32,000 bases of DNA. Source: Candidatus Nanoclepta minutus. Lineage in GTDB: Archaea > Nanobdellota > Nanobdellia > Nanobdellales > Nanobdellaceae. The DNA is taken from NCBI GenBank assembly GCA_003568775.1, contig MWMI01000002.1:1-32000 (forward strand), given 5' to 3'. The translations under genes were made by a program, and so were the position numbers. The notes under the pieces are model-generated. The model saw only the letters and a program-made list of their open reading frames with translations, was not told the origin of the DNA and made no database searches. Positions 18,432 to 32,000 of the stretch are shown here, piece by piece (position 1 is the first letter of the stretch; the number at the start of each line of letters is the position of its first letter).

Positions 18432-19847
18432 TTATCTTTTAAACATACTATATAAAAATGCTATTACAACAAAGTATTCTATCCTACCTCCCCACATGAG
18501 GAAGATAAATAATAACTTATAGACTAATGGCATTTGATTTGAAATAAAACCGAGGGATAATCCTACATTTCCCATTGCAGATGCAACCTCAAATAGAGAA
18601 TGCAGAAAGTTTTTTGTATACAATGTAAATGCTATTGATGATATCATTAATATAAGGACGTATAAAAAGAAGTACATACCTGCATTCAATATATCTTCGT
18701 TATCTATTTCTTTATTTATATAGGTTTCTACAACTACTTCTTTTGCCGATCTAGAGATATTTCTGATGTATTTCTTAATCCCCTTAAAGAGTATTATTAT
18801 CCTATCGATCTTTACTGCACCTGAGGTAGATCCCACAGCACCGCCAAATATCATTAAAAGGATCAGGCCGAAGATATAACTTTCGTTCATGTTCAATAAA
18901 TTCAAATAAGAAAACCCAGTACAAGTCATAGCAGAGACTGTATGAAATATAGAATCTAATATATCTATTCCGCTCGAGAAGTACCCCAAAATGCTTACAA
19001 CTGTTATAAAGAGTATCATCCACCTGAGGGGTTCATAAACTCTTATAAACCTGCGATTACCTTGGAAAAACACCTTATAATGGAATAAAAAGCTAGTTGC
19101 TCCAAGGATCATCAGAACTATAATTATTATTTTCTGTGAAATAGTTAGGTTAAGAAAACTAAATGGTATCATTCCTCCAGTCGCTAAAGCTGTCATCGAT
19201 AGGTTAACTGATGTAAAAACATCCATTCCAGTAAAAGATAAAAAAGATGCCCCAAAAAATGTTAGAACTGCATATATCTTAAAGATTTCTTTTATAGAAT
19301 GCTCCATGGTTCCCTCAAACAGTTCTTCTCTTCCTTCAAACTTAACAATATGATATAATATCTTATTATCACTTAATAAATAAACTAAAAAGGCTACTAT
19401 ACCTATACCACCAATCCATTGCTCAAAACTCCTCCAGAACTTAACCGAATACGGTAAACTTTCTAAGTTACTATACATCGTAAAACCTGTAGTAGTCCAT
19501 GCGGACATGCTCTCGAAATAAGAGTCTATGAGGCTTAGACCAGTTAAAAAATAAATTATTCCACTTATGAAAGGCATGATCAACCATGCAAGAGCTATTG
19601 CAGAAATTACAATATGATGCTTTACCTTCAATTTTTCAAGAGGGATATTTATTTTATTTTCTAGTAAAAATCCACCAATATAGAGAATCGCTCCTGTGAT
19701 AAAAAATACTAGGGCATAAATAAATTCAAAGGTATTTAAGGTGAGTAATCCTATTAGGGTAGATACCAAGATAGCCAAAAAGTGAAATATAGAGAATATC
19801 CTAAATATTGCCCCAAAGACCTTCAAAAACAATAGGAAATCTTCCAT
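18432..19847 (-). CDS. trkH: K+ transporter membrane subunit TrkH/KtrB family
   Basis: 471 aa polytopic protein with four pore-loop-like motifs: SAWTTTGFT, ALATGGM, SAMTCTGFS and SAMGNVGLSLG. Confidence 0.8.
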   Translation of the reverse strand: MEDFLLFLKVFGAIFRIFSIFHFLAILVSTLIGLLTLNTFEFIYALVFFITGAILYIGGFLLENKINIPLEKLKVKHHIVISAIALAWLIMPFISGIIYFLTGLSLIDSYFESMSAWTTTGFTMYSNLESLPYSVKFWRSFEQWIGGIGIVAFLVYLLSDNKILYHIVKFEGREELFEGTMEHSIKEIFKIYAVLTFFGASFLSFTGMDVFTSVNLSMTALATGGMIPFSFLNLTISQKIIIIVLMILGATSFLFHYKVFFQGNRRFIRVYEPLRWMILFITVVSILGYFSSGIDILDSIFHTVSAMTCTGFSYLNLLNMNESYIFGLILLMIFGGAVGSTSGAVKIDRIIILFKGIKKYIRNISRSAKEVVVETYINKEIDNEDILNAGMYFFLYVLILMISSIAFTLYTKNFLHSLFEVASAMGNVGLSLGFISNQMPLVYKLLFIFLMWGGRIEYFVVIAFLYSMFKR

Positions 19848-19884
19848 TTTTATAGGATTATGGCAAAATCTTTATTAAACTTAA

Positions 19885-20361
19885 TTATACCACCTGTTCA
19901 AGTATTTGTTTTAGTATATCCCTCTTAGTTAGGAAGGCGTCTATTACGGAAGGCCCTAATAAATATCTTTCATTCATCCAGCTGAGGAAATCTTTATCTA
20001 TAAGATCAAACGGATAAACAACTATGCCCTCTATTTCTTCACCATTAATACTCAACTCTCCTCTTACAGTCCCAACGTAGCTCTTAACTAATAAATTTGT
20101 TCTCTTTTTTGGAGAATATACATACGTTTCTATACAGTCCTTACTTATTTTTTCTATTTCTAAATTTAGTTCCTCCCTCAATTCTCTTTTTAAAGCATCT
20201 ATTTCACCTTCTCCTTCTTCTAAAGTACCACCTGGAAAATAAACTGCCTTATAGTTTTTATTTATAACAAGAAATGTATAAGGATAAGTTATTATCCCTA
20301 CAGCTATCCTTTCATAATTCCTTTCCTTTAAAAAATCTCCAAATAGTCTAAAACTTTTCAT
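19885..20361 (-). CDS. NUDIX hydrolase
   Basis: GGTLEEGEGEIDALKRELREELNL fits the Nudix box Gx5Ex7REUxEExGU. Confidence 0.8.
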   Translation of the reverse strand: MKSFRLFGDFLKERNYERIAVGIITYPYTFLVINKNYKAVYFPGGTLEEGEGEIDALKRELREELNLEIEKISKDCIETYVYSPKKRTNLLVKSYVGTVRGELSINGEEIEGIVVYPFDLIDKDFLSWMNERYLLGPSVIDAFLTKRDILKQILEQVV

Positions 20362-20458
20362 ATAACTTTAGTTAAAAATACTTTTAAAAATAAAAATAAA
20401 TCTAAAATAGTATGGCATGTGGCTCAAAGAAATCAAAGAAAGAGAAAAAGGAACAAAA

Positions 20459-20869
20459 TTAAAATAGAAAAATAAGCAAAAATATAAAGGCTATTATAAA
20501 AATTGCTGCTTTTTTCCAACTAATTAAAAATTTAGGTATATTTATATTTGGTAAAGATAAATGAATAGGTTTAATTATTTCAAATGGAATATTATTTTTC
20601 CCAAAAATATGAATTAAAACTATATCGAAAGGTATAGAACTCTTGAATAAATGCTGTAGATATTTTCTAGATATTTCTAGCTCTGCATTCAATGTGTTAT
20701 CCTTATAACCTCTTACATGTATCTCCAGAAAATTATTTATTGGCTTTATTAATCCAAAAACCTGACCCTTCTTTCTAAACTGCCATCTAGTTTTTCTAAA
20801 ACCTTCTTTATTTATAAGAACTTCTTCCACAATCTTTATATCTGTAAGGACCCTTATTGAACCGATCAT
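20459..20869 (-). CDS. Hypothetical protein with a C-terminal membrane anchor (136 aa)
   Basis: Clean ORF. The last ~20 residues (AAIFIIAFIFLLIFLF) are hydrophobic. No recognisable motif. Confidence 0.45.
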   Translation of the reverse strand: MIGSIRVLTDIKIVEEVLINKEGFRKTRWQFRKKGQVFGLIKPINNFLEIHVRGYKDNTLNAELEISRKYLQHLFKSSIPFDIVLIHIFGKNNIPFEIIKPIHLSLPNINIPKFLISWKKAAIFIIAFIFLLIFLF

Positions 20870-20973
20870 TATTCTCTTTAAATCCGTAGTCTATTTTTAA
20901 TATATGCTTAACAAAGATGAAAACTATATAAGTTTATAAAAAACTTTTTAATTTTAAATATATATACTATCTT

Positions 20974-21591
20974 ATGGTAGTAAAAAATCCATTATCAAAG
21001 ATAAGGGAAAGCTTTGAGATACATCAACTAGAAAAGAAGATAGAAGACGTCTATAGAAAATATGGAGAAATAACATTAAAGTTTGTTAGAGGATATATAG
21101 AAGCACTTAAAAAAGGAAAAGAAATTAGCAATGATGGTTATAGGAGGGTTTTAGAAACTCTATTATGCGAAGATATTATAGAATTTATGAATTACACTTG
21201 GGAAAAATACTATAAGGAAGTAAATATGATTCCTACACAAATAATTTATGGAATTAGTAATTTTGCAAAATATGTTAGAGATACAGATATGCTTAAAGAT
21301 TTCATAAGGGTCCTAAAAATATATGGTGATGTAAGTCATCCCATATTTAAAATACCATCAAGTGAATTGATTTCGTCTCGTATGTTCTATCCTCCATATT
21401 ATGGTACCTTATTAAAAGAAGATGACCCTAGAATAACTTCAGCTGTTAAATGCACATTAGACGAGCTTCTTAAGGAAGAAACAAAACAAAGAGTAAGAGA
21501 AGACGAATATGTTATTGATAAAATTATAGTAAATTGTGCTGAAAAAGCAGGTTTTAGGCCAGATTATATTAAAATTAAAGCATTAGAATAA
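20974..21591 (+). CDS. Hypothetical helical protein (205 aa), possibly a third member of the 15966/16956 group
   Basis: Similar size, an MV start and a helical composition. The A/T promoter region has tttataaa at 20933-20940. Sequence similarity to the other two is weak. Confidence 0.55.
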   Translation: MVVKNPLSKIRESFEIHQLEKKIEDVYRKYGEITLKFVRGYIEALKKGKEISNDGYRRVLETLLCEDIIEFMNYTWEKYYKEVNMIPTQIIYGISNFAKYVRDTDMLKDFIRVLKIYGDVSHPIFKIPSSELISSRMFYPPYYGTLLKEDDPRITSAVKCTLDELLKEETKQRVREDEYVIDKIIVNCAEKAGFRPDYIKIKALE

Positions 21592-21691
21592 AATCATAAT
21601 AAATTTTTTAGAGCTAAATCTTTAGATTTTTATTTTTTATATAAACTTTTTATTTAAAGATTATATTTTTTCTCAACATTTTATAATCAGG

Positions 21692-22909
21692 ATGTCAAAC
21701 CTCTGCTTAATATGTAGGGGCACAAAACTCCTATGTGGAAAGGCTTATTGTCCAATCTTAGTTAAGAGCATCTTAAAATTTAAAATAAAAAATATAACAT
21801 TGAAAAGAGAAGTTTATGGATCTTCTCCCCCTTCAGTTTTTGTTGGAAGAATTGGATATCCTGAAGTTTATATTGGTCCTGCAGCTCCATCCTTTTTAGG
21901 AAATACAGAGATATACGATAAACCTGAAGGTTGGATAAACAAGCCATTAGAGGAAATACTAGATTATAGATTCTCTTTAATATTTGGAAGGACAAAGGTC
22001 AAAGTAAAGGATATCTCAAATAGAACTGTAGAAATAATCCAAGAGATTTCAATGGCAGAAAGACCTGTAGGTATAGAGATGGTGTTCAAGAAGAGTCCTA
22101 TACCAAGAATAAAGTTTGATGAACATACACCACCTCAAGGACCAACAGCTCCTTTATCTAAGATCAGCGTAACAGAAAATATAAGGGTTGATAAAAAAAT
22201 AGAAAAAGCGTATTATGATACTGATCTAAAAGCAAGAAACGCAATAATAGAACTATATAGAAATAAAGTCGATGTATCTAGAATACAAAAAATATTAAGT
22301 GTTGGAGGATTAGGACTAATAAAGAATAGAAGACTCGTACCTACAAGATGGGCTATTACTGCAGTTGATAGTACAATATCAGAAAACCTAATTAAAGAAA
22401 TAAAAGAATTTCCAACTATAGAAAAATACCAGGTATTTATTAGAGAATATATGAAGAACCTGTTTATAGTAATACTAATCCCTAGATCCTGGAGTTATGA
22501 ATGGATGGAGGGATGGTTCCCAAATACTACATGGAATAGGAGTAAAGAAATTGATATTGAAGGTGATTATGAAGATTTTAAGGGAAGGACTACCTATCCA
22601 AGTATTGGAGGTTGCTATTATGCTGCAAGGTTAGCCACTGCAGAATATCTATATAGAATAAAGAGACAGGCTACTGCAATATTAATTAGAGAGATCTATC
22701 CAGGATTTGACTTACCAATTGGTGTTTGGTTTGTAAGGGAAAACTTAAGAGAAACCTTTAAGCAAAAACCATTAGAGTTCGATAATATTAAAGAAGTAAT
22801 AGAATATGTTTCAAAGAAAACAAAGATTGATTTTAATGAATGGATTAAAAGATCTTATTTATTAAGAAAGGTTATTTCTGAAAGGAAAATAAAAGAATGG
22901 TTAAAGTAG
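21692..22909 (+). CDS. nreA: Archaeal DNA repair protein NreA family
   Basis: The N-terminus MSNLCLICRGTKLLCGKAYCPIL is the characteristic Nre Cys cluster. The 405-aa length is typical. The C-terminus ERKIKEWLK looks like a degenerate PIP box. Confidence 0.7.
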   Translation: MSNLCLICRGTKLLCGKAYCPILVKSILKFKIKNITLKREVYGSSPPSVFVGRIGYPEVYIGPAAPSFLGNTEIYDKPEGWINKPLEEILDYRFSLIFGRTKVKVKDISNRTVEIIQEISMAERPVGIEMVFKKSPIPRIKFDEHTPPQGPTAPLSKISVTENIRVDKKIEKAYYDTDLKARNAIIELYRNKVDVSRIQKILSVGGLGLIKNRRLVPTRWAITAVDSTISENLIKEIKEFPTIEKYQVFIREYMKNLFIVILIPRSWSYEWMEGWFPNTTWNRSKEIDIEGDYEDFKGRTTYPSIGGCYYAARLATAEYLYRIKRQATAILIREIYPGFDLPIGVWFVRENLRETFKQKPLEFDNIKEVIEYVSKKTKIDFNEWIKRSYLLRKVISERKIKEWLK

Positions 22910-23748
22910 AATTTATTGAAGTAAAAGAAGCTTTAAGCAAGAGCAATTTACCAGATTTATATTATGCATTAAATCCCTATTTTGGTTGTGAGCATTCATG
23001 CATTTATTGTTATGCAAGAGAGTATACACCTGATAAGGAAGTTTCAGAAAACTGGGGTAAAATTATAAAGGTTAAGAAGAACCTGATAGATCTCTTAAAG
23101 ATAGAAGTGAAGAAAAAGAAAAGGGGAGTTGTAGGATTATCTACTATAACAGATCCCTATCAACCTATAGAAAAGGAACTTGAATTAAGTAGAAAAGGCT
23201 TAGAAATACTTTTAAAAAATGGATTTAAGGTTAGCATTCAAACTAAGTCCGATTTAGTTTTAAGAGACTTAGATTTTTTAACACAGTTTAAGGATCTTGT
23301 AGATGTTGGACTAACAATAACCTTTTTAGATAAGGATATTGCAAAAAAATTTGAAATAAATGCTCCAGAACCTGAAAGAAGGATAAATGCCTTATATAAA
23401 CTATCCGAAAATGGAATAAAAACATGGGTTTTTTATGGACCAATTATACCTAAAGTAAACGATAATTTGGAAATAATAAAGGAGTTGGTTAAGATTGCAA
23501 AGGAAACTAATAGTATTTTTTATTATGATAAATTGAGGATAAAGAAATTTATGTTAAAATCTAATGATCTTTTAATAAAAGAGATAGTTAATTCTTCTAA
23601 AAGTTATGATTGGAAAAATCTGTATAAAAAAATAGAAGAAATATGCAAAGAAAACAATGTAAAATGCTTACAAGCTTTTGAAAATAAAAGAAATAATATA
23701 TTAAGTTTTTTACCCAAAGGTTATAGTATACTACCTATTCTGCTGTAA
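22897..23748 (+). CDS. Radical SAM protein, SplB/DNA-photolyase-like (COG1533-type)
   Basis: FGCEHSCIYCYA is a CxxxCxxC cluster near the N-terminus. The TIM-like length (283 aa) fits. Its start overlaps the nreA end by 13 nt. Confidence 0.7.
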   Translation: MVKVEFIEVKEALSKSNLPDLYYALNPYFGCEHSCIYCYAREYTPDKEVSENWGKIIKVKKNLIDLLKIEVKKKKRGVVGLSTITDPYQPIEKELELSRKGLEILLKNGFKVSIQTKSDLVLRDLDFLTQFKDLVDVGLTITFLDKDIAKKFEINAPEPERRINALYKLSENGIKTWVFYGPIIPKVNDNLEIIKELVKIAKETNSIFYYDKLRIKKFMLKSNDLLIKEIVNSSKSYDWKNLYKKIEEICKENNVKCLQAFENKRNNILSFLPKGYSILPILL

Positions 23749-24505
23749 GAGTTTTCTCAATAACTATTGTTCCTAAGACCATTGAAACTGCTGTAAAGGT
23801 TAATACTGCTATAAGATGACTTAAAGAAGGTATAGTACCGTAAACTAAAGCACTTCTTCCAATTTCTGTAAGATAGGTAAGGGGATTGGCTTCACTTATT
23901 ATCTGTAACCAAGATGGGAAAAACTGCTTTGGAAATAGGGCAGTAGATGTAAACATTAGAGGCATAGTTATTAAATTCATAACAGCCCCCGGAGCCTGAA
24001 CATCTGCTGTATTTGCAGTTAGAGCCATAAAGATCAAAGAAAATCCTATACCAACAGCAACAAGTGATACAAACCATTCTAACAAAGCAATCAAGTTTAC
24101 TGTAAACTGAACCCCCAATACTATACCTAAAAAGAGCAGTATGGACATAGTTAATATACCCCTCGTAACGGCTCCAAGTGCTTTTGCTAAACCAATAGCC
24201 GATTTTGGAGTAGGGGTAGTAAGTATCCTCTTTAAGTAACCTACACGCTTATCAAATACAAGGCTCATTGAAGCAAAAACACCCATGGTCATCATGAGAA
24301 TTGATATCATACCTGGTAGCATATAAGTTAAATAATTGCTTACACCAAAGTATTGATTTAGAAAACTACTAGGCATACCAGCTAAGCTATTACCAAAGAA
24401 GAGAATCCACATTAAAGGTTGTGCTATCATCATAAACCACATATACTTACTCCTAATAAGTTTTAGAAATTCCCTTTTATAGAGAACGTATATCTCTCTT
24501 ATCAT
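23735..24505 (-). CDS. ABC-2 type exporter permease
   Basis: 256 aa with six predicted TM segments, and a 4-nt overlap with the upstream ATPase gene. This is the typical ABC-2 layout. Confidence 0.8.
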   Translation of the reverse strand: MIREIYVLYKREFLKLIRSKYMWFMMIAQPLMWILFFGNSLAGMPSSFLNQYFGVSNYLTYMLPGMISILMMTMGVFASMSLVFDKRVGYLKRILTTPTPKSAIGLAKALGAVTRGILTMSILLFLGIVLGVQFTVNLIALLEWFVSLVAVGIGFSLIFMALTANTADVQAPGAVMNLITMPLMFTSTALFPKQFFPSWLQIISEANPLTYLTEIGRSALVYGTIPSLSHLIAVLTFTAVSMVLGTIVIEKTLTAE

Positions 24506-25458
24506 CTTCTAGCCAACCTTATCCTTCTATATAGCCTTTGAATATTCACTTGTTCTCCCTCAATAGAAGCTCCGGTAAGGTTCATAAATACTGTATCCAA
24601 GCTAGTTTTCTTTAATTTAACACTTTTAACACTACCTATAGCTTTAACAACTTCTGGAATTATCTCTTCGGCATTCTTTGTTTTTATAATAACTTTCCCG
24701 TCTTCTAAAATTACTTCGCCAAATTTAGACAAAACAGATGTATCTACTTTATCTTTTACTTCTAGCTCGATTATATCTGTACCATACTTCGTCTTTAACT
24801 CGTCTGGAGTACCAATCGCTATAATCCTCCCCTTATTTATTATGGCTATCCTATGACAGAGTCTCTCGGCCTCTTCCATATAATGAGTTGTTAGAAGAAC
24901 TGTAACTCCGAAGTCTTTATTTATTCTTTCCACAACTTCCCAAAGTCCTACCCTGGCTCCCACATCCAAACCTATTGTAGGTTCATCCATAAAAAGTACT
25001 TCTGGACTATGGAGAAGGGCCATAGCTACCTCTAATCGCTTTCTCATCCCAGTAGAATACTTTCCTACAGGTCTATTTGCTGCTTCCCATAAATTAAAAT
25101 ATTTCAATAGATCTTGAGCCCTCTCCTTCCAATTTTTCACTCCAGTAAGCTTCGCCTGTATCTCTAAGTTTTCCCATCCAGTAAGTTCGTCATCTACTAT
25201 AACCTCCGAAGCTATCCATCCAACCCTCTTCTTAACTTCCCTTGCATTTTTTACTACATCAAAACCAGCCACAATCGCTTGTCCAGAAGTTGGTTTGGTA
25301 AGACCTGTAAAGATCTTAATAGTAGTAGTTTTTCCGGCACCATTGGGGCCTAGAAGACCAAAGATTTCTCCTTTCTTTATATGAAAGGTTACCCTATCTA
25401 AAGCTATTACATCTCCGTATAGTTTCCTTAGTTCAATTGCTTCAATTGCATATTCCAT
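24502..25458 (-). CDS. ABC transporter ATP-binding protein (DrrA/CcmA-like)
   Basis: Walker A GPNGAGKTT, signature YSTGMRKRL, Walker B LFMDEPTIGLD and H-loop TTHYMEE. Confidence 0.92.
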   Translation of the reverse strand: MEYAIEAIELRKLYGDVIALDRVTFHIKKGEIFGLLGPNGAGKTTTIKIFTGLTKPTSGQAIVAGFDVVKNAREVKKRVGWIASEVIVDDELTGWENLEIQAKLTGVKNWKERAQDLLKYFNLWEAANRPVGKYSTGMRKRLEVAMALLHSPEVLFMDEPTIGLDVGARVGLWEVVERINKDFGVTVLLTTHYMEEAERLCHRIAIINKGRIIAIGTPDELKTKYGTDIIELEVKDKVDTSVLSKFGEVILEDGKVIIKTKNAEEIIPEVVKAIGSVKSVKLKKTSLDTVFMNLTGASIEGEQVNIQRLYRRIRLARR

Positions 25459-25593
25459 GGTTATATAAGAATCTCAATTTGAGCCAATATTTAACCTCTT
25501 TTCTAAGATGTATAAATATGTAGGTTTTATCTAAACACATAACCAATATCTTTTTATAAAAAACTTTAAAAAGAATTATAGGAGAACGACTTT

Positions 25594-26781
25594 TTAGATA
25601 TTCTTCGATTTTAACTCATAAAACTGTGGTGGTAGAGGAGTTTTTGTAGTCTCACATATTAGATATATCCTTTGCCAAACCCTGGGGTGCGTCTCTATCT
25701 CTGTATCAAAAAATAAGGCCTGTATATTCTCTGGAATTTTATTTCTCCTTATAAAATCCTCAGAGCTCTCGTAGGCTACTTTCATTAAAGCATTAATCAT
25801 TCCAGGAGGATAATTAGTCTTTCTTACAGCAGCTATGTCTGCAAGATGCTCCCTTAGCTTTGAGGCCCTAGAAATCAACTTAGACATGATTATAGGGGTA
25901 ATTATATACAAGAGTAATCCTACCACAAGGGATATAAGAGCTAATATAAAAAGGTATCCCTCTCCCTTTCTATCTCTATCAGATCCTCTTCCCGATCTCT
26001 TAAATATAATTCTTGGTAAAACATAAGCCATAAACCAGGCTAATACTAAGACAGCTGCAGAAACTATGGCAAACTTCGTCATAAATTCTGAATCCTTGTT
26101 AATTATGTGAGAAAACTCATGGGCTAATACATTTTCTAACTCATGGTAATCTAATTTTTCTATTGCTCCCTTTGTAAGGATTATCATACTCCTTCCGTCT
26201 GATCCGGAAACTGTCATTGCATTTATTATTGGCCAATCTACTATTTTTAATTCAACTTTATTAGACAGTCCGAAGCCTATCCTTAAGGCATCGAATAACT
26301 GATAAGCCATATATTCCTTCGGATCCTTTAAGTTTGATGGTCTGGCATGTATTATACTAGCTAAAAAGTTTCCAGGATCTCCTTCCGCAGAAGAGCTCAT
26401 TGAATAGACAAAAGTAATGCTAATTAGAAGGGAAATTATAAATAACATCAAAAATGGAAAAGAAGCAAGAATATTATAAAAAATTGGTAAAATAAATATT
26501 ACGACGAACAAAAATAGAAAAATACCTACTATTAGATCTGCCGCTCTAATACCTGGTAATTCCGTTAAAACTAATATTGTCATAATGATATAGATAAATA
26601 TCATTAAAAACAAAGAAACTCCTAGCTCTTCATCAAGAGCTATGTATGTTATATTTGCTATCAAAAAATTAATTAGAGTTAACCAAATAATAGAGAATAA
26701 TAATAAGATCTTACTTTTTCTTTCTATCTCACTTTTAAGGTTAAAAAAATCTTTAGAAGAAAAACCTAAATTTTCTACCAT
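25594..26781 (-). CDS. Membrane-embedded zinc metallopeptidase, M48 (HtpX/Ste24-like) family
   Basis: LAHEFSHIINKD carries the HExxH motif. It is flanked by several TM helices on both sides. Overlaps lemA by 7 nt. Confidence 0.65.
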   Translation of the reverse strand: MVENLGFSSKDFFNLKSEIERKSKILLLFSIIWLTLINFLIANITYIALDEELGVSLFLMIFIYIIMTILVLTELPGIRAADLIVGIFLFLFVVIFILPIFYNILASFPFLMLFIISLLISITFVYSMSSSAEGDPGNFLASIIHARPSNLKDPKEYMAYQLFDALRIGFGLSNKVELKIVDWPIINAMTVSGSDGRSMIILTKGAIEKLDYHELENVLAHEFSHIINKDSEFMTKFAIVSAAVLVLAWFMAYVLPRIIFKRSGRGSDRDRKGEGYLFILALISLVVGLLLYIITPIIMSKLISRASKLREHLADIAAVRKTNYPPGMINALMKVAYESSEDFIRRNKIPENIQALFFDTEIETHPRVWQRIYLICETTKTPLPPQFYELKSKNI

Positions 26782-27368
26782 TGACTTAAGCCCTTAGTAA
26801 ACTCTCCAGATTCTAAGGACCTTCTAGTTTCTTCCGATCTTTCATATCTAAAGTATGGCAACTCCTTCTTTCCAAGCAACTTAGCTATTATAATACCCGG
26901 GAAAGACAATATGTATGTGTTATAATCGTTTATTGCATCGTTTAGAAACTGTCTAGCATATGATACTTTATCTATAGATACCCTAATCTCATTAAAGAGC
27001 ATTTGAAATTGTTGCATAGATTGTAACTGTGGATACTGCGGAAGTTGTAAAATTATTGGCATTATTGTACCAAAAAAGCTTGAGCTAGTATTTATTCTAT
27101 CTGATAGATCTTTACTTGACTTAATAGCGCTTAAGTACTTGCTATAGGATTCTGATATCTGGGTTAATACCTTCTGCTCCAATAATCCTGCTCCTTTTAC
27201 TGAATTTACTAGGTTTGGTAGTAGCTCTGCTACTCTGTTTAGTTCCCTCTCTATTTCAGATTGCGCCTGTCTAACTCTCTGTTCCCTCCTTATTATGCTG
27301 TTATATACTGCGATAAAAAATACTATTATAAAAAAGATTATAGCTAATACAATAAGCAATAGACTCAT
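26775..27368 (-). CDS. lemA: LemA family protein
   Basis: An N-terminal TM helix is followed by VYNSIIRREQRV...ELLPNLVNSVKG, matching the LemA consensus (YN.l...v..a.s.i...l.RR.dLiPNLV..vKg). Confidence 0.8.
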   Translation of the reverse strand: MSLLLIVLAIIFFIIVFFIAVYNSIIRREQRVRQAQSEIERELNRVAELLPNLVNSVKGAGLLEQKVLTQISESYSKYLSAIKSSKDLSDRINTSSSFFGTIMPIILQLPQYPQLQSMQQFQMLFNEIRVSIDKVSYARQFLNDAINDYNTYILSFPGIIIAKLLGKKELPYFRYERSEETRRSLESGEFTKGLSQW

Positions 27369-27781
27369 AATAATCTTCTATGGAAGTTTAGATTATTTAA
27401 AGCTTGTTATAGAAAATGTCCTAGTTTTCATTAAGAACTAAAAATGAACCAAAAAATTATAAAATTCTTTAGTATTCTACTAGTTATAAGCAATTGAATA
27501 AAAATTTATGAACTTATTTCTTCTCTTCCTTCCTCTTTACCATAACATATATTTAGGAGTTGTAATATAAAGTAATAGATACGCAAAAAGAACGATTAAA
27601 AAATAGGAAAAGATAAATCAAAGTATATTATAAACTTTGAAAAATACATAAAAGGTTTAAATATAGTATTTCTTAACTTAATCTAGTATAATTGTGCTCT
27701 TTTTCATTTTATTTCTTCAAATTTAATAAAAAATTAATCTAGCCAAAATTTTAAAATATATAGAAACTACTTTGTATCCCT

Positions 27782-28534
27782 ATGAAAGAAGACATTATCC
27801 TCTGGCACTTAGAATCTCCTGAAGAGGAGAATTGGCTAGAAAGCGAATACATTACATTACTTATAAGATTAGCTGAGAAGAAGTTAAATAAAAAGTATAC
27901 AAAAATTTTAGATATAGCATGCGGAATTGGAAGACATCATAAGTATTTAAGAGATAATGGATTTGAAGTTTATGGAATAGATAATAATGATAACCTTATT
28001 AAAGTTGCTAAAGACAGAAATAGAGGATTTGAAAAATACTATGAAGTAAGAGATATGAGAGAAATAAACTTCAATGAGGAGTTTGATGTAGTTTTGAATT
28101 GGTTCACATCCTTTGGATACTTTAGTCATGAAGAAAACTTAAAAGTACTAAAAAACTTTTATAATGCTTTAAAACCTGGAGGACTCCTAATATTTGACTT
28201 CCCAACCAAATGGAGGGAAGGATATTATATTATGGACTTTGGCGAATACTTGGAAATGAATTATACTGAGAGGGACAATTTTATATATAATCTCTCATCC
28301 AAGCTTTATAAAAAAGAAGAGGATAAATTACAATTTGTTAAGGAACTAAAATTGAGAGTTATAGTCTATCCTCCAAACGAGATAAAGAATATGTTAGAAA
28401 ATTTAGGATTTAAAATTCTGTTTATATTTTCTAATAGAAGTTTAAAAACCTTAAAGAACGATGATAAGGAATTGGAATTATTAAACCTAACAGAGAAGGG
28501 TATCACTCGTTTAACTTGGGTTTGCTATAAATAA
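27782..28534 (+). CDS. Class I SAM-dependent methyltransferase
   Basis: Motif I ILDIACGIGRH, the acidic loop YGIDNN, and the post-I/II motifs VVLNWFTSFGYF and LKPGGLLIF. Confidence 0.8.
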   Translation: MKEDIILWHLESPEEENWLESEYITLLIRLAEKKLNKKYTKILDIACGIGRHHKYLRDNGFEVYGIDNNDNLIKVAKDRNRGFEKYYEVRDMREINFNEEFDVVLNWFTSFGYFSHEENLKVLKNFYNALKPGGLLIFDFPTKWREGYYIMDFGEYLEMNYTERDNFIYNLSSKLYKKEEDKLQFVKELKLRVIVYPPNEIKNMLENLGFKILFIFSNRSLKTLKNDDKELELLNLTEKGITRLTWVCYK

Positions 28535-28539
28535 TTTTT
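28535..28539 (+). terminator. Oligo-T tract immediately after the methyltransferase stop
   Basis: TAA is followed directly by a T5 run. Confidence 0.3.
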
Positions 28540-28635
28540 CGTTTCACGCATTTATAACATAATTAAAATCAAACTTCTATAAAAGCTTTTTCAAACTAAA
28601 TGCTTTATCCTCCTAATACAGAAAAATAAAAATAT

Positions 28636-29328
28636 TTAAGGTTGATAGCCTTTTGTTTCTTCCCTTTCTATAGAAATTCTAGGAGAAGCTAGTTTTATGT
28701 TAAGATAAGAAGGTGATCTACAAATATCAACTATTCCATTCTCACCTACGTATACGAATCCCCTTAATCCTAACTTATCTGGCTCTTTACAAGCAGGTTC
28801 ACATTTAGCTAATACAGTATTTCCCTTTTCTAACTTATATTCTCTTGTAAGTTTTAGTATATCTTCTAGAGGTATTTCTCCATGAATAGATACTAAATGA
28901 TATGACCTTGGTTGATCTATCCTTCCTACTATAAGATATAACGTATTGAGCTTTAAATTTTCTGTAGCATAACCATTCTTTAAACCTATTTTACTATAAT
29001 TAACATAAAATATTTCATTAGCAGAGTGTGCTTTTTCTAATTTATCCACATAACATATAATTCTTACATTAGGGTCATTTATCCCTTCTAATAATTTATC
29101 TAAATTCAATGTATTTCCTGTATTGATATCTACTATCTTTCTGTCTCCAAACATTCCTTTAAACTGTTCTGCTATCTTATTCCCCTCTAACGTATAATAT
29201 ATCTCCATTATAGTTTCTTGTACCTTCTCCTTATTGGTCTCTTTAGCCTCTCTAGCCTCACCTAGTTTTGCAATCCACGAATACTCTGGTAATTCTTCTC
29301 GTGGGGATTGCTCAGATGTATTTACCAT
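28636..29328 (-). CDS. Hypothetical protein (230 aa)
   Basis: Clean ORF with an A/T TATA-like stretch 22-32 nt upstream. Acidic N-terminus, and the C-terminal part contains CEPAC...C. No family recognised. Confidence 0.55.
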   Translation of the reverse strand: MVNTSEQSPREELPEYSWIAKLGEAREAKETNKEKVQETIMEIYYTLEGNKIAEQFKGMFGDRKIVDINTGNTLNLDKLLEGINDPNVRIICYVDKLEKAHSANEIFYVNYSKIGLKNGYATENLKLNTLYLIVGRIDQPRSYHLVSIHGEIPLEDILKLTREYKLEKGNTVLAKCEPACKEPDKLGLRGFVYVGENGIVDICRSPSYLNIKLASPRISIEREETKGYQP

Positions 29329-29399
29329 ATAATAACATATATAGTTAAATTTTTAAATATTACTTACAAATAAACTCTAGTACATCTTATAGAACGGTT

Positions 29400-29419
29400 C
29401 GGATAACTAGCATTATCCG
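29400..29419. promoter_or_regulatory. Perfect 7-bp inverted repeat CGGATAA-N6-TTATCCG
   Basis: cggataactagcattatccg is the most G/C-rich element of this spacer. It lies 72-91 nt upstream of the start of the minus-strand gene 28636..29328. Confidence 0.3.
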
Positions 29420-29481
29420 TCAGGATCTTATGAAATATTTAATTTTCAAAATAGTATAATTGTATTATAGAATTTGCATAA

Positions 29482-29594
29482 TTATAAATGTGCCTTTGTA
29501 CTTCTCAGAGAAATTTTACAATCCCTTAGACTACACTGTAAGATTTTGAAAGGATATGAGAAAAAATATGGTTTGATTAACGGTTTTGATTAAC
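29482..29594 (+). repeat. Repeat unit A (TATA-like box + conserved ~85-nt segment); candidate sRNA gene
   Basis: TTATAAA at 29482-29488. Core at 29531-29594: CTACACTGTAAGATTTTGAAAGGATATGAGAAAAAATATGGTTTGATTAACGGTTTTGATTAAC. Confidence 0.6.
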
Positions 29595-29621
29595 AAAGTT
29601 ATATATTATACAGATTAGGAG

Positions 29622-29734
29622 TTATAAAATTATTTTGAGCTTTTCAAAAGACTTTTTGAAATTCTATATGCTACACTATGAGACTTTGAGAGAGTATAGA
29701 AAAGAACGAGGTATGATTAACAGTTTTTGATTAC
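29622..29734 (+). repeat. Repeat unit B; candidate sRNA gene
   Basis: TTATAAA at 29622-29628, exactly 140 nt from unit A. Core at 29671-29734: CTACACTATGAGACTTTGAGAGAGTATAGAAAAGAACGAGGTATGATTAACAGTTTTTGATTAC. About 75% identical to A over the first 57 nt by hand count. Confidence 0.6.
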
Positions 29735-29783
29735 TAATATTAAATTCTAAGTTTATATCTAATATCAAACAAATTTTAAAAAA

Positions 29784-29969
29784 TTATTTAAAAATAGAAA
29801 CTTTTAATTTATCAATTTCTCTAGATATTTCAAAGAGCGCTATACCAGTTAAAAGTATAGATACGCCTATCTCTGGTTTTTTCATTGCTACTAATATAGA
29901 TCCTAACACTATTATAACCCCTGTAAAAACTTTATATGTAGGTATTTTCATACCTATATCTATTGCCAT
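29784..29969 (-). CDS. Small two-TM membrane protein (61 aa)
   Basis: MAIDIGMKIPTYKVFTGVIIVLGSILVAMKKPEIGVSILLTGIALFEISREIDKLKVSIFK has two hydrophobic helices separated by KKPE. Lies between repeat units B and C. Confidence 0.45.
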   Translation of the reverse strand: MAIDIGMKIPTYKVFTGVIIVLGSILVAMKKPEIGVSILLTGIALFEISREIDKLKVSIFK

Positions 29970-30041
29970 AAATTTTAAAAAATTACATAAATTACAATTC
30001 CGAGACCTTCCTCAAAACCTCGCTAAATAAATAGTATTGTA

Positions 30042-30152
30042 ATATAAATTGTGTACTAAATTTCTTAAAGGAAACTTGAAATCTCTTAGCTACATTATAA
30101 AATTTCGAAAGTATATTGAAAGGGATGAATATAATTAATAGTTTTGATTAGC
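30042..30152 (+). repeat. Repeat unit C; candidate sRNA gene (most diverged of the three)
   Basis: ATATAAA at 30042-30048. Core at 30090-30152: CTACATTATAAAATTTCGAAAGTATATTGAAAGGGATGAATATAATTAATAGTTTTGATTAGC. About two thirds identical to A by hand count. Confidence 0.55.
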
Positions 30153-30207
30153 TAAATAGATATAAATAAATTAAAAATCTTATAACTTTTAAGGAAAATA
30201 GTATAAA

Positions 30208-30654
30208 ATGCCGTTAATAATATCTTCATATATTTACAGATCCGAATCACCTATAAAAAAGAAAGGTATATCTGCGATGTACGTAGATGTAGATAAAAAA
30301 TACCTCAGCGAACAATACGATTTAACGGATCTGTCAAAAGAATATTGGGTTTATGGCAGGATAATTGAAGTAATAAAGGATTCACCTATATCAGAAGATG
30401 AAAGGAAATTGTTGGAACAATATGTTATTAACAGAGAAGTTAAATTATTCTTAGTACCCGGTCTTTTTTATTCTTCTTATGATAGACTTCATTTTGATAA
30501 TGACACATGGAGTATTCTCAGAGACATTGGTATTATTAGGGAAGAATACAAACTTAAAGTAAAGTTATACAAAGTAGAAATAATAGGATCCAATGGTATT
30601 AAGGAAGGGGAAATTAATCTTTATCCTTATAGAGACATTATAGCAGAAAAATAG
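30208..30654 (+). CDS. Hypothetical protein (148 aa), upstream partner of the PaREP1-like gene
   Basis: Clean ORF 11 nt upstream of the next gene. No motif recognised. Confidence 0.55.
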   Translation: MPLIISSYIYRSESPIKKKGISAMYVDVDKKYLSEQYDLTDLSKEYWVYGRIIEVIKDSPISEDERKLLEQYVINREVKLFLVPGLFYSSYDRLHFDNDTWSILRDIGIIREEYKLKVKLYKVEIIGSNGIKEGEINLYPYRDIIAEK

Positions 30655-30665
30655 ATTATAGTATT

Positions 30666-31067
30666 ATGGAAGAACTTATAAATGAAATTAGAAGAAGGTT
30701 AAATATAATTAAAAGTTATTCTAAAAATTATATGGAATCTTTAGATAAAAAAGAATATGGAAAAGCTTCTGAAATGCTATGGGGTATTATAAATAACTTA
30801 GCATCTATATTAAGTATTCTTAATGGAGGTAAACCTATTTCTAAGCATAGTGAACTTAGAGAGTTTATTGAGAGTCTAGCTTATATATTAAAAGATGAGG
30901 AAATTATCGACCTTTTTAGATCATGCGAAATCTTACATGCAAATTATTTTCATAATTTTTTAGATGAAATTTTATTTGAAAGTTATAGAAAGGATGCAGA
31001 GAAACTTATCAATAAACTCCAAGAGCTAATAATAAGAGAGCTTCAAGCTAAAGGTATTAAAATCTAG
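30666..31067 (+). CDS. PaREP1-family (HEPN-superfamily-like) helical protein
   Basis: ASEMLWGIINNLASILSILNGGKPISKHSELREFIESLA...LFRSCEILHANYFH follows the PaREP1 pattern (a.K.WgA...a.ka.a...g....sH..L...v..l......l...a..LH.NFY). Confidence 0.6.
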   Translation: MEELINEIRRRLNIIKSYSKNYMESLDKKEYGKASEMLWGIINNLASILSILNGGKPISKHSELREFIESLAYILKDEEIIDLFRSCEILHANYFHNFLDEILFESYRKDAEKLINKLQELIIRELQAKGIKI

Positions 31068-31603
31068 TTTTTAAATTTTTATTTTGGACTATATAAGCCA
31101 TTTCCATAAAGGTATAAACCTTATTTCTTTGTTATCTATTTTTAAAACATCATTCATAATCACAAGTTATAACAATCAACTCTAGATTAAGAGATATTAT
31201 AAAGATTTAGCAATATGCTGTCTATTAAGATTGAGAAATATAAAATAAAAGAATATGAAATCGAATAAAAGACAACGGATAGAATTATTAAAAACGGTTA
31301 TGCTTTAACCAATTGATTTAGCTTTGATTGAACAATTGCTGGCATTACTATGGATACTAACAGAAATATTAGAAAATATATCAAACCTTTATCTTCTTCT
31401 CCAACTTTGAATTAATTGCTTCGTGTTCTAGAACAGCTTCTTTAAAGTTTTTCCAAGTATAATAAAAACATTCTGTTACTTTTCAAAAAACAACCAACTA
31501 ACCTTAATTTAGAAAAACTGCACTAGACTTTTAAAATACAGCAAAAATGTCTTTTCCTAGTTTATAATTATAATTTTAAAATTCAAATCTTAGATATTTT
31601 TAC

Positions 31604-32000
31604 ATGATCGGTATAATTGTTGGTAAAACATACGAAAATCCTAAAGAATTCTTAAAAGATTTTGAAATAGAAGCTGTAGCACAAGATAGTAAAACAATAG
31701 ATTATGTTAAAGAAATAATAGAAAATGCAAAGACTTTATATATTAGTATAAACCTTAGTGATGAGCTATTAGATGAGGAGGTATTTGACAAAATTGAAGA
31801 TATATATGAAAGGATCGTTGAAAAAACGAACTATAAAATAGATGATGATTATTTAAATGATATATTAGACAACGTTGAAAAAGGCTTATCTGATACGGTA
31901 GCAAACCACATCATAGATCTATTGAAGAGGTTTAGACTAAACAAATTAACATTATATAGACCTTCATCACCCCTTATACCATATCCTATAAATCCTCCTA
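31604..32000 (+). CDS. Partial CDS (N-terminal 132 codons, runs off the window end): acidic hypothetical protein
   Basis: Open-ended, so absent from the track. ATG at 31604 reads MIGIIVGKTYENPKEFLKDFEIEAVAQDSKTIDYVKEIIENAKTLYISINLSDELLDEE... with no stop to the window end. tttataat lies ~40 nt upstream. Confidence 0.5.
   Translation, partial: MIGIIVGKTYENPKEFLKDFEIEAVAQDSKTIDYVKEIIENAKTLYISINLSDELLDEEVFDKIEDIYERIVEKTNYKIDDDYLNDILDNVEKGLSDTVANHIIDLLKRFRLNKLTLYRPSSPLIPYPINPP

Follow-up and report, generated by a model that had tools for sequence, protein, structure and literature searches.

A lineage-restricted family of non-coding repeats with promoter-like 5′ edges at the junctions of strain-variable gene modules in Candidatus Nanoclepta minutus

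We describe a family of short repeats in a 32,000-nt stretch of DNA of the nanoarchaeal hot-spring symbiont Candidatus Nanoclepta minutus (contig MWMI01000002.1, positions 1–32,000 of the forward strand), which we analysed as a whole and refer to as the window. The repeats form a real, lineage-restricted, non-coding family: three units (A, B and C) lie inside the window, a fourth of the same genome (E) lies beyond its end, and the strongest pattern, invisible from the window alone, is that the units stand at the junctions of strain-variable modules and recombine with each other. Our tentative reading is that the units are short, unstructured, promoter-bearing non-coding transcription units that also serve as recombination substrates at these junctions. 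Transcription, the ends of the transcript and any function of the RNA are what we infer from this organization, so that the finding is a lead rather than a discovery.

The three units of the window occupy the plus strand of an 880-nt spacer, with a minus-strand 230-aa gene on one side and a plus-strand module of a 148-aa gene and a PaREP1 gene on the other. Unit A (29482–29601; nhmmer E = 7e-31) opens with the TATA-like box TTATAAAT (29482–29489), continues through the dyad TTCTC-A-GAGAA (29502–29512) into a core (29531–29594), and holds in its 3′ part a tandem TGATTAAC/GATTAAC pair (29574–29594), a T4 run (29584–29587) and the tail AAAGTTA. Unit B (29622–29742; E = 3e-26) consists of the box TTATAAAA (29622–29629), the dyad CTTTT-C-AAAAG (29640–29650) and a core (29671–29735) with TGATTAAC at 29714–29721, a T5 run and GATTACT at 29729–29735. 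In unit C (30042–30159; E = 1e-21), which immediately precedes the promoter region of the 148-aa gene, the box is ATATAAAT (30042–30049), the dyad is imperfect (TTCTT-AA-AGGAA, 30062–30073), and the core (30090–30152) ends in TAATTAAT (30132–30139) and GATTAGC (30146–30152). The boxes precede CTACA by 41–42 nt, the sequence blocks of the units include CTACAYTRT and GTTTTGATTAAC, and successive units are spaced by 140 and 420 nt.

These units are homologous: local alignments of A/B, A/C and B/C score 38, 33 and 31, compared with 10.2–10.5 ± 1.7–1.8 for dinucleotide shuffles (z = 15.9, 13.0 and 11.7); no other 120-nt chunk of the window gives a comparable alignment score; and nhmmer profiles find exactly three copies in the window. 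A first-pass annotation, made from the letters of the window, had reported three same-strand copies at these positions, each with a T4–T5 run and a tandem TGATTAAC pair at its 3′ end; the copies are there, with z values of 12–16, and so are both 3′ features. Some of its figures had to be adjusted. Over the core from CTACA to GATTA, A and C are 70% identical, close to the two thirds it gave, whereas A and B reach 69%, slightly below its ~75% (B/C, 67%); the core that it delimited is real, but homology is wider than those 57–64 nt and spans ~115–120 nt, from the TATA box to ~7 nt past the second GATTAAC; the common register of the TATA box holds in A, B and C, and also in unit D of a related contig, but not family-wide; and the count of three, which is right for the window, falls short of the family, whose fourth copy in this genome begins ~350 nt past the window end.

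The family has seven known units. Four (A, B, C and E) belong to one genome; D is in contig L002, and F and G are in contig L028, L002 and L028 being related metagenome contigs. Six of the seven (A–F) are complete, and G is a tail only. We reached unit E through a search with ORF61, the small open reading frame (ORF) between B and C, which led to a Logan contig (L027) that is 100% identical to window positions 19784–32000 and extends 7.9 kb further; E corresponds to L027 7606–7489, ~350–460 nt past the window end, where it lies between a 242-aa gene, whose stop codon precedes it by 5–10 nt, and a 255-aa gene, which follows after 149 nt. L002, a JGI contig, carries D as its single unit, and L028 has a frameshifted ORF61 homologue between the unit tail G and unit F. 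This genome thus holds at least four copies within 3 kb, all on the same strand, and the unit size is ~105–120 nt. Full units A–F are 62–77% identical in pairs. TATAA(A/G) opens all six complete units, as TATAAG in E and F, where it stands ~10 nt nearer the core than in A–D; in F, the CTACA block is gone with a 12-nt deletion. The best-conserved part is the 3′ third, RTATRATTAAYRG-TTTTGATTAAC-AAAATTA (66–90% pairwise identity); all seven copies have an unchanged TTTGATTA near the 3′ end, and the six complete ones an unchanged GTTTTGATTA.

Within the collections searched, the family is restricted to the Nanoclepta lineage. Collections of viruses, metagenomes and genomes had no match to a strict two-block pattern; a relaxed one matched 11 times on bacterial genome records and 7 times in viruses, with none of these matches significant against the unit profile; and neither a further viral pattern scan nor BLAST against plasmids and phages gave a match. 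The pair of 148-aa and PaREP1 genes is kept in every homologous locus (L002–L008); the units occur only in the Nanoclepta-like loci, and no unit lies upstream at loci whose 148-aa homologues are ~50% identical.

The units are also non-coding. In a frame common to both, A is open for 39 codons and B for 31, but stops or indels disrupt this frame in four of the six complete copies: C needs a frameshift and has a stop, D and E have an in-frame TAG or TGA, and F has a deletion. The encoded peptides are 32% identical between A and B at ~64% DNA identity, and ~53% identical (counted by eye from the alignment) between A and D at 76% DNA identity; these values are those expected of neutral drift (for A/D, 0.76 cubed, ~0.44, plus synonymous changes). 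An alignment of the A/B/C peptides had no match among 5.8 billion proteins, an A/B profile gave a single spurious, repetitive match among 1.84 billion representative proteins, and blastx of the units against all proteins of the island in which they lie was negative. The first-pass annotation had called a coding explanation weak; the broken frames, the neutral peptide identity and the lack of a parent protein in the databases searched bear it out. Micro-ORFs (the hexapeptides MINGFD and MEKD..) were rejected on their non-conserved starts, a decayed 5′ end of the 148-aa gene on a z of 1.5, and membership of a small protein gene or gene-fragment family on the frames of C, D, E and F, the neutral peptide identity and the lack of a homologue.

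It is scarcely probable that the units are decayed coding relics, whether of a gene 3′ end or of a small ORF, ending in ...INGFD*. The common frame of A and B would fit such an origin, as would a stop position common to A, C, D, E and F (B stops one codon earlier) and a nearby minus-strand repeat (31094–31190), itself demonstrably what is left of a DUF4143 ATPase C-terminus. The in-frame stops of C, D and E, the frame-breaking indels of C and F, the neutral peptide identities and the empty protein searches speak against it; moreover, the start codon is conserved in none of the units, and all share a common 5′ edge, unlike the products of independent truncations.

This 5′ edge is the TATA box: homology of the six complete units starts there whatever adjoins upstream, including the coding sequence before E. 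That homology begins exactly at the box is the main, although circumstantial, support for stand-alone transcription units. Nanoarchaeal RNA genes are described with a box A placed 26 nt ahead of the purine at which they start, as well as with T-stretch terminators (Randau 2012, PMC3491384). In A, B and C, the position 26 nt from TATAAA falls on A/G at ~29509, ~29649 and ~30069, and it does so at the equivalent site in D; thus the arrangement generic to archaeal stand-alone small RNAs (sRNAs), a TATA/box A ~26 nt before a purine, is found in A–D at the level of sequence. The predicted start in these four units is also the beginning of the conserved (A)GAAAUUUU segment, and genes of the window use similar TTTATAAA/TTTAAATA-type boxes ~30–40 nt before their ATG. 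We propose that an archaeal TATA/box-A-like element at the 5′ edge would serve each unit individually; that transcription of A–D would start on the purine ~26 nt downstream of the box; and that the unit would end in the conserved tandem TRATTAAY-RG-TTTTGATTAAC block, which contains the T4–T5 run. With a TATA element at the 5′ end and a T-run-containing block at the 3′ end, each unit may thus be read as a stand-alone unit for an AT-rich, unstructured RNA of ~70–95 nt, which would act by linear base-pairing or protein binding rather than through a fold. The persistence of the units in an AT-rich, reduced nanoarchaeal genome, which we take to be ~0.58 Mb in size, also counts in favour of this proposal.

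Several observations weigh against it. TATAAR occurs 115 times on the plus strand of the window, and because the motif is so common the promoter support is circumstantial; a T run of only four or five bases is short and weak as an archaeal terminator; and the anatomy departs from its own pattern in the displaced box of E and F and in the lost CTACA block of F. Minimum free energies from RNAfold match those of shuffles on both strands (z −0.9 to +1.1), RNAalifold detects neither covariation nor conserved structure with three or six sequences on either strand, and the sole consensus pairing of the six sequences is an invariant, weak 7-bp helix (−2 kcal/mol) between the two UGAUUA copies, with none on the minus strand. 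The units have about the G+C content of the spacer, in a window of ~30% G+C, and the IVYWREL fraction of 0.468 is that of a hyperthermophile-like proteome. Structural RNAs of AT-rich hyperthermophiles are G+C-rich; a folded RNA is therefore unlikely for units that are spacer-like in composition while the proteome suggests hyperthermophily. Antisense complementarity of the units to neighbouring genes does not exceed that of shuffles. The proposal of an sRNA family made in the first-pass annotation accordingly stands in part: the repeat family is real and non-coding, belongs to no known RNA class and has a TATA-like box in all six complete units, but it comes with no structural signal on either strand, spacer-like G+C, a weak T4 terminator and a shifted TATA register in E and F.

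The same annotation had recognized no known RNA family (transfer RNA, C/D box, H/ACA or other) in the units, and our Rfam and ARAGORN searches were likewise empty. Rfam gave no match in the whole window at the gathering threshold and, with an E-value threshold on 29300–30300, two chance-level matches only (E ~8–9), one of them CRISPR-DR45 (E = 8.9). ARAGORN found no transfer RNA in the window; a transfer RNA or transfer RNA half is further rejected on the spacer-like composition and the lack of predicted structure. A C/D box sRNA is defined by a box C (RUGAUGA) and a box D (CUGA), plus C′/D′, that are able to form a K-turn; the candidate boxes of the units read TGATTA instead of TGATGA, and CUGA is missing from A and conserved nowhere in the six-unit consensus.

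Between the TATA box and the predicted start, a 5-bp dyad is present in A (TTCTC/GAGAA), B (CTTTT/AAAAG), D (TTTCT/AGAAA) and E (TTCTT/AAGAA); its symmetry is kept with changed bases, where the background expectation is 0.15 per 25 nt. This small dyad, or the tandem TGATTAAC pair, could be the binding site of a putative regulator, and the units would then be duplicated promoter/operator cassettes (“reused promoters”) that control downstream co-oriented genes. Groups of “highly similar” promoters before non-homologous genes, reused and putatively mobile, have been described in prokaryotes (PMC3575422). In our family, conservation is highest in the tandem 13-nt half-sites; 56 nt separate the ends of C and D from the operon of the 148-aa and PaREP1 genes, and E precedes the 255-aa gene; and a further TATA-like box follows 5–20 nt past the end of C, D and E. 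We nevertheless consider this explanation improbable: nothing but B follows A, and what lies ahead of B and of G is the 3′ end of a convergent ORF; the half-sites of the dyad and their spacing (1–3 nt) vary, unlike those of a protein operator; the homologous operons whose proteins are 50% identical lack an upstream unit; and the confident AlphaFold model of the 148-aa protein (pLDDT 88) is mostly beta, with no significant PDB match, so that nothing marks this protein as DNA-binding.

Comparison of strains reveals a second property of the units. The window and L002 are 96.2% identical in the 148-aa gene, 96.8% in the PaREP1 gene, 97.9% in the 533-nt spacer after PaREP1 (which holds the pseudogene relic), 98% in the right flank of C/D and 93% in the left flank (29395–29481). 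Unit D, in contrast, is 76% identical to A, 68% to C and 66% to B, and its 28 differences from A in 116 nt have a Poisson probability of ~2e-16 at a background of 3%. The 5′ two-thirds of D resemble A, and its 3′ end resembles C (P = 0.002 by maximum chi-squared, with no correction for the 60 triplets or for the choice of breakpoint); identity between C and D jumps from ~80% to ~100% at the left edge of the invariant GTTTTGATTA and stays at ~100% to the C locus from there on. As the flanks are 93–98% identical and D is chimeric, one strain has a single recombinant unit where the other has A-B-ORF61-C. The ORF61 segment of L028 matches the window at 90.5% identity, the adjoining units at only 65–75%. 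Similarity among the units is mosaic: core3 of D is 90% identical to E, at another locus, and the 5′ part of D is nearest to A. In the core, 25 columns vary by transitions only and 6 with transversions, which reflects the mutation spectrum of the organism and not a special signature, because genes compared between the window and L002 show the same excess (26 transitions to 4 transversions). Unequal recombination together with gene conversion among the units explains part of the excess divergence. Being homologous and co-oriented, the copies would be substrates for unequal homologous recombination, which would insert, delete and reshuffle the small accessory gene modules between them.

It is possible, if rather unlikely, that the units are nothing but DNA-level junction repeats of a strain-variable island, either recombination sites or scars of module insertion and deletion, in which case RNA would be irrelevant and the TATA-like box either AT-rich sequence present by chance or a promoter carried along as a passenger. 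Of the four long intergenic spaces in the island, three contain units, with unrelated accessory genes on either side; in L002, B, ORF61 and C are missing and the A/C chimera is present; ORF61 is bracketed by units in the window and in L028, with different outer contexts; the island holds a second repeat, the relic of a gene's 3′ end; and the identity switch between C and D and the mosaic similarity of D fit as well. This explanation, however, leaves the TATA box at every unit start and the conserved 3′ block unaccounted for; pairwise identities of 62–77% are too low for efficient homologous recombination; no recombinase or integrase gene is present in ~40 kb; and the units show neither dyad symmetry nor terminal inverted repeats nor a target-site duplication. 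Very improbably, they might be the recombination junctions of an undescribed nanoarchaeal cassette-exchange system served by some recombinase, or the targets of local diversification, either of which would explain why the units diverge by 24–35% between strains and their flanks by 2–4%.

Known repeat elements were considered and rejected in turn. A clustered regularly interspaced short palindromic repeat (CRISPR) array, which the first-pass annotation had excluded on spacing and copy number, is absent from tandem-repeat and direct-repeat scans, and the spacing is 140/420 nt. The miniature inverted-repeat transposable element (MITE) that it had raised as an alternative does not fit either: no inverted repeat pairs the unit ends, no flank is duplicated, and copies occur only within ~3 kb. 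Integron attC sites are rejected because no hairpin spans the unit (single-stranded DNA folds on both strands, z −1.1 to +0.8), GATTAAC is present only as a direct pair at one end and no integrase was found. A template-repeat/variable-repeat pair of a diversity-generating retroelement would have an adenine bias, and in the alignment A/G and C/T columns both vary; a search of the ~40 kb available found no integrase, recombinase or reverse transcriptase gene. The repeats of type III toxin–antitoxin RNAs are excluded by units that are not tandem and are 62–77% identical, and by a close strain with a single unit.

The window is chromosomal, with genes for PheRS alpha and beta, SerRS, Nre, TrkAH and an ABC transporter; three of its proteins are identical to the Candidatus Nanoclepta minutus entries RIB35373.1, RIB35390.1 and RIB35386.1, and exact look-ups of the 148-aa, PaREP1 and ORF61 products retrieved no record. 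ORF61 (29784–29969, minus strand) encodes 61 aa (55 aa from the second ATG) with two hydrophobic segments. It is a strain-variable accessory gene, absent from L002 and frameshifted in L028 (869–1056), where it is again flanked by units (G and F). Lying 25–47 nt from the 3′ end of ORF61, unit B (in L028, G) is oriented convergently towards it, a geometry that resembles 3′-overlapping type I toxin–antitoxin pairs; a T6 run directly after the ORF61 stop probably terminates the ORF61 messenger RNA before any overlap.

On the left, the flank of the unit array (29395–29481, plus strand) is the last segment shared with L002, and synteny breaks left of 29395. At this break lies a perfect 7-bp hairpin, CGGATAA-CTAGCA-TTATCCG (29400–29419); sequences leftward are unrelated and those rightward are 93–98% identical. 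The hairpin could be the boundary of a mobile or variable island. A 12-mer of the hairpin region, GCATTATCCGTC, also starts the 255-aa gene downstream of E (L027 7353). Searching with the hairpin as an anchor gave no match in a metagenome contig collection that evidently excludes L002, which carries the hairpin. Another strain-level breakpoint lies in the spacer upstream of a methyltransferase gene (window ~27570–27690): contig L001 is 98.6% identical to window 27687–29362, the alignment ends at 27687, and the last ~118 nt of L001 (1677–1794) are unrelated.

On the right, the two-gene module consists of the 148-aa gene (30208–30654, plus strand) followed by the PaREP1/HEPN-like gene (30666–31067, plus strand). 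Its ~50%-identical homologues stand on G+C-richer contigs beside pyruvate:ferredoxin oxidoreductase genes; these contigs would belong to another archaeal lineage, possibly a crenarchaeal host, which suggests horizontal transfer of the module. A second repeat family of ~95 nt, 78–81% identical, has copies at window 31094–31190 (minus strand), L027 4964–5058 and L027 2230–2295. The copy at L027 4964–5058 is the 3′ end of an intact gene for a 422-aa AAA_14/DUF4143 ATPase; translation of the window copy, which requires a frameshift and runs through stops, gives ...LELIVITCDYE*/...DNKEIRFIPLWKWLI*, and the copy is thus the relic of a paralogous ATPase C-terminus. Right of the window, L027 1–7350 is an island of hypothetical genes (ORFs of 416, 297, 87, 422, 201, 263, 255 and 242 aa) for which we found no convincing Pfam, PHROG or NCBIfam assignments and no paralogues among neighbours; the 297-aa ORF has a weak match to a MarR/Csa3-like helix-turn-helix, and the 422-aa ORF is the AAA_14/DUF4143 gene.

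Nanoarchaeota genomes are among the smallest and most tightly packed in archaea, and because they are so compact it is unusual to find 880 nt of spacer filled by conserved non-coding repeats. Transcribed units would make up a hyperthermophile sRNA family that is particular to this lineage and has no stable fold. Units acting as recombination junctions would mean that an obligate symbiont, even with its genome reduced, goes on shuffling accessory modules, among them the PaREP1 (HEPN-like) gene pair, whose nearest other homologues are on G+C-richer contigs.

The units invite comparison with four known systems. Like MITEs and repetitive extragenic palindromic (REP)-type repeats, they are short, non-coding, multi-copy and intergenic; they differ in having no terminal inverted repeats, target-site duplications or hairpins, in their confinement to a 3-kb island, and in being 62–77% identical rather than near-identical. 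Integron attC sites, such as the Vibrio cholerae repeats, are also co-oriented repeats of ~120 nt around small ORFs with a toxin–antitoxin-like module, and the content between them also differs among close strains. The units, however, lack imperfect dyad symmetry and a RYYYAAC/GTTRRRY core pair, no integrase lies near them, and conservation of an ORF does not extend to the unit beside it; the putative cassette exchange among them would be analogous to attC arrays in outcome but different in site architecture. With reused promoters (PMC3575422), the units have in common that homologous promoter-bearing segments precede non-homologous genes (the 148-aa gene for C and D, the 255-aa gene for E); unlike them, they are far more diverged, two of the four copies in the genome have no downstream co-oriented gene, and the downstream genes seem to have their own TATA boxes. 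Finally, the units differ from archaeal stand-alone small-RNA genes (PMC3491384) in having no C/D or H/ACA boxes, no fold, an AT-rich rather than G+C-rich composition, a T run of just 4–5 bases and a TATA register that varies across the family, whereas they resemble these genes in their 5′ TATA-like box, the purine ~26 nt downstream of it in A–D, the 3′ oligo-T, a predicted size of 70–95 nt and their intergenic location.

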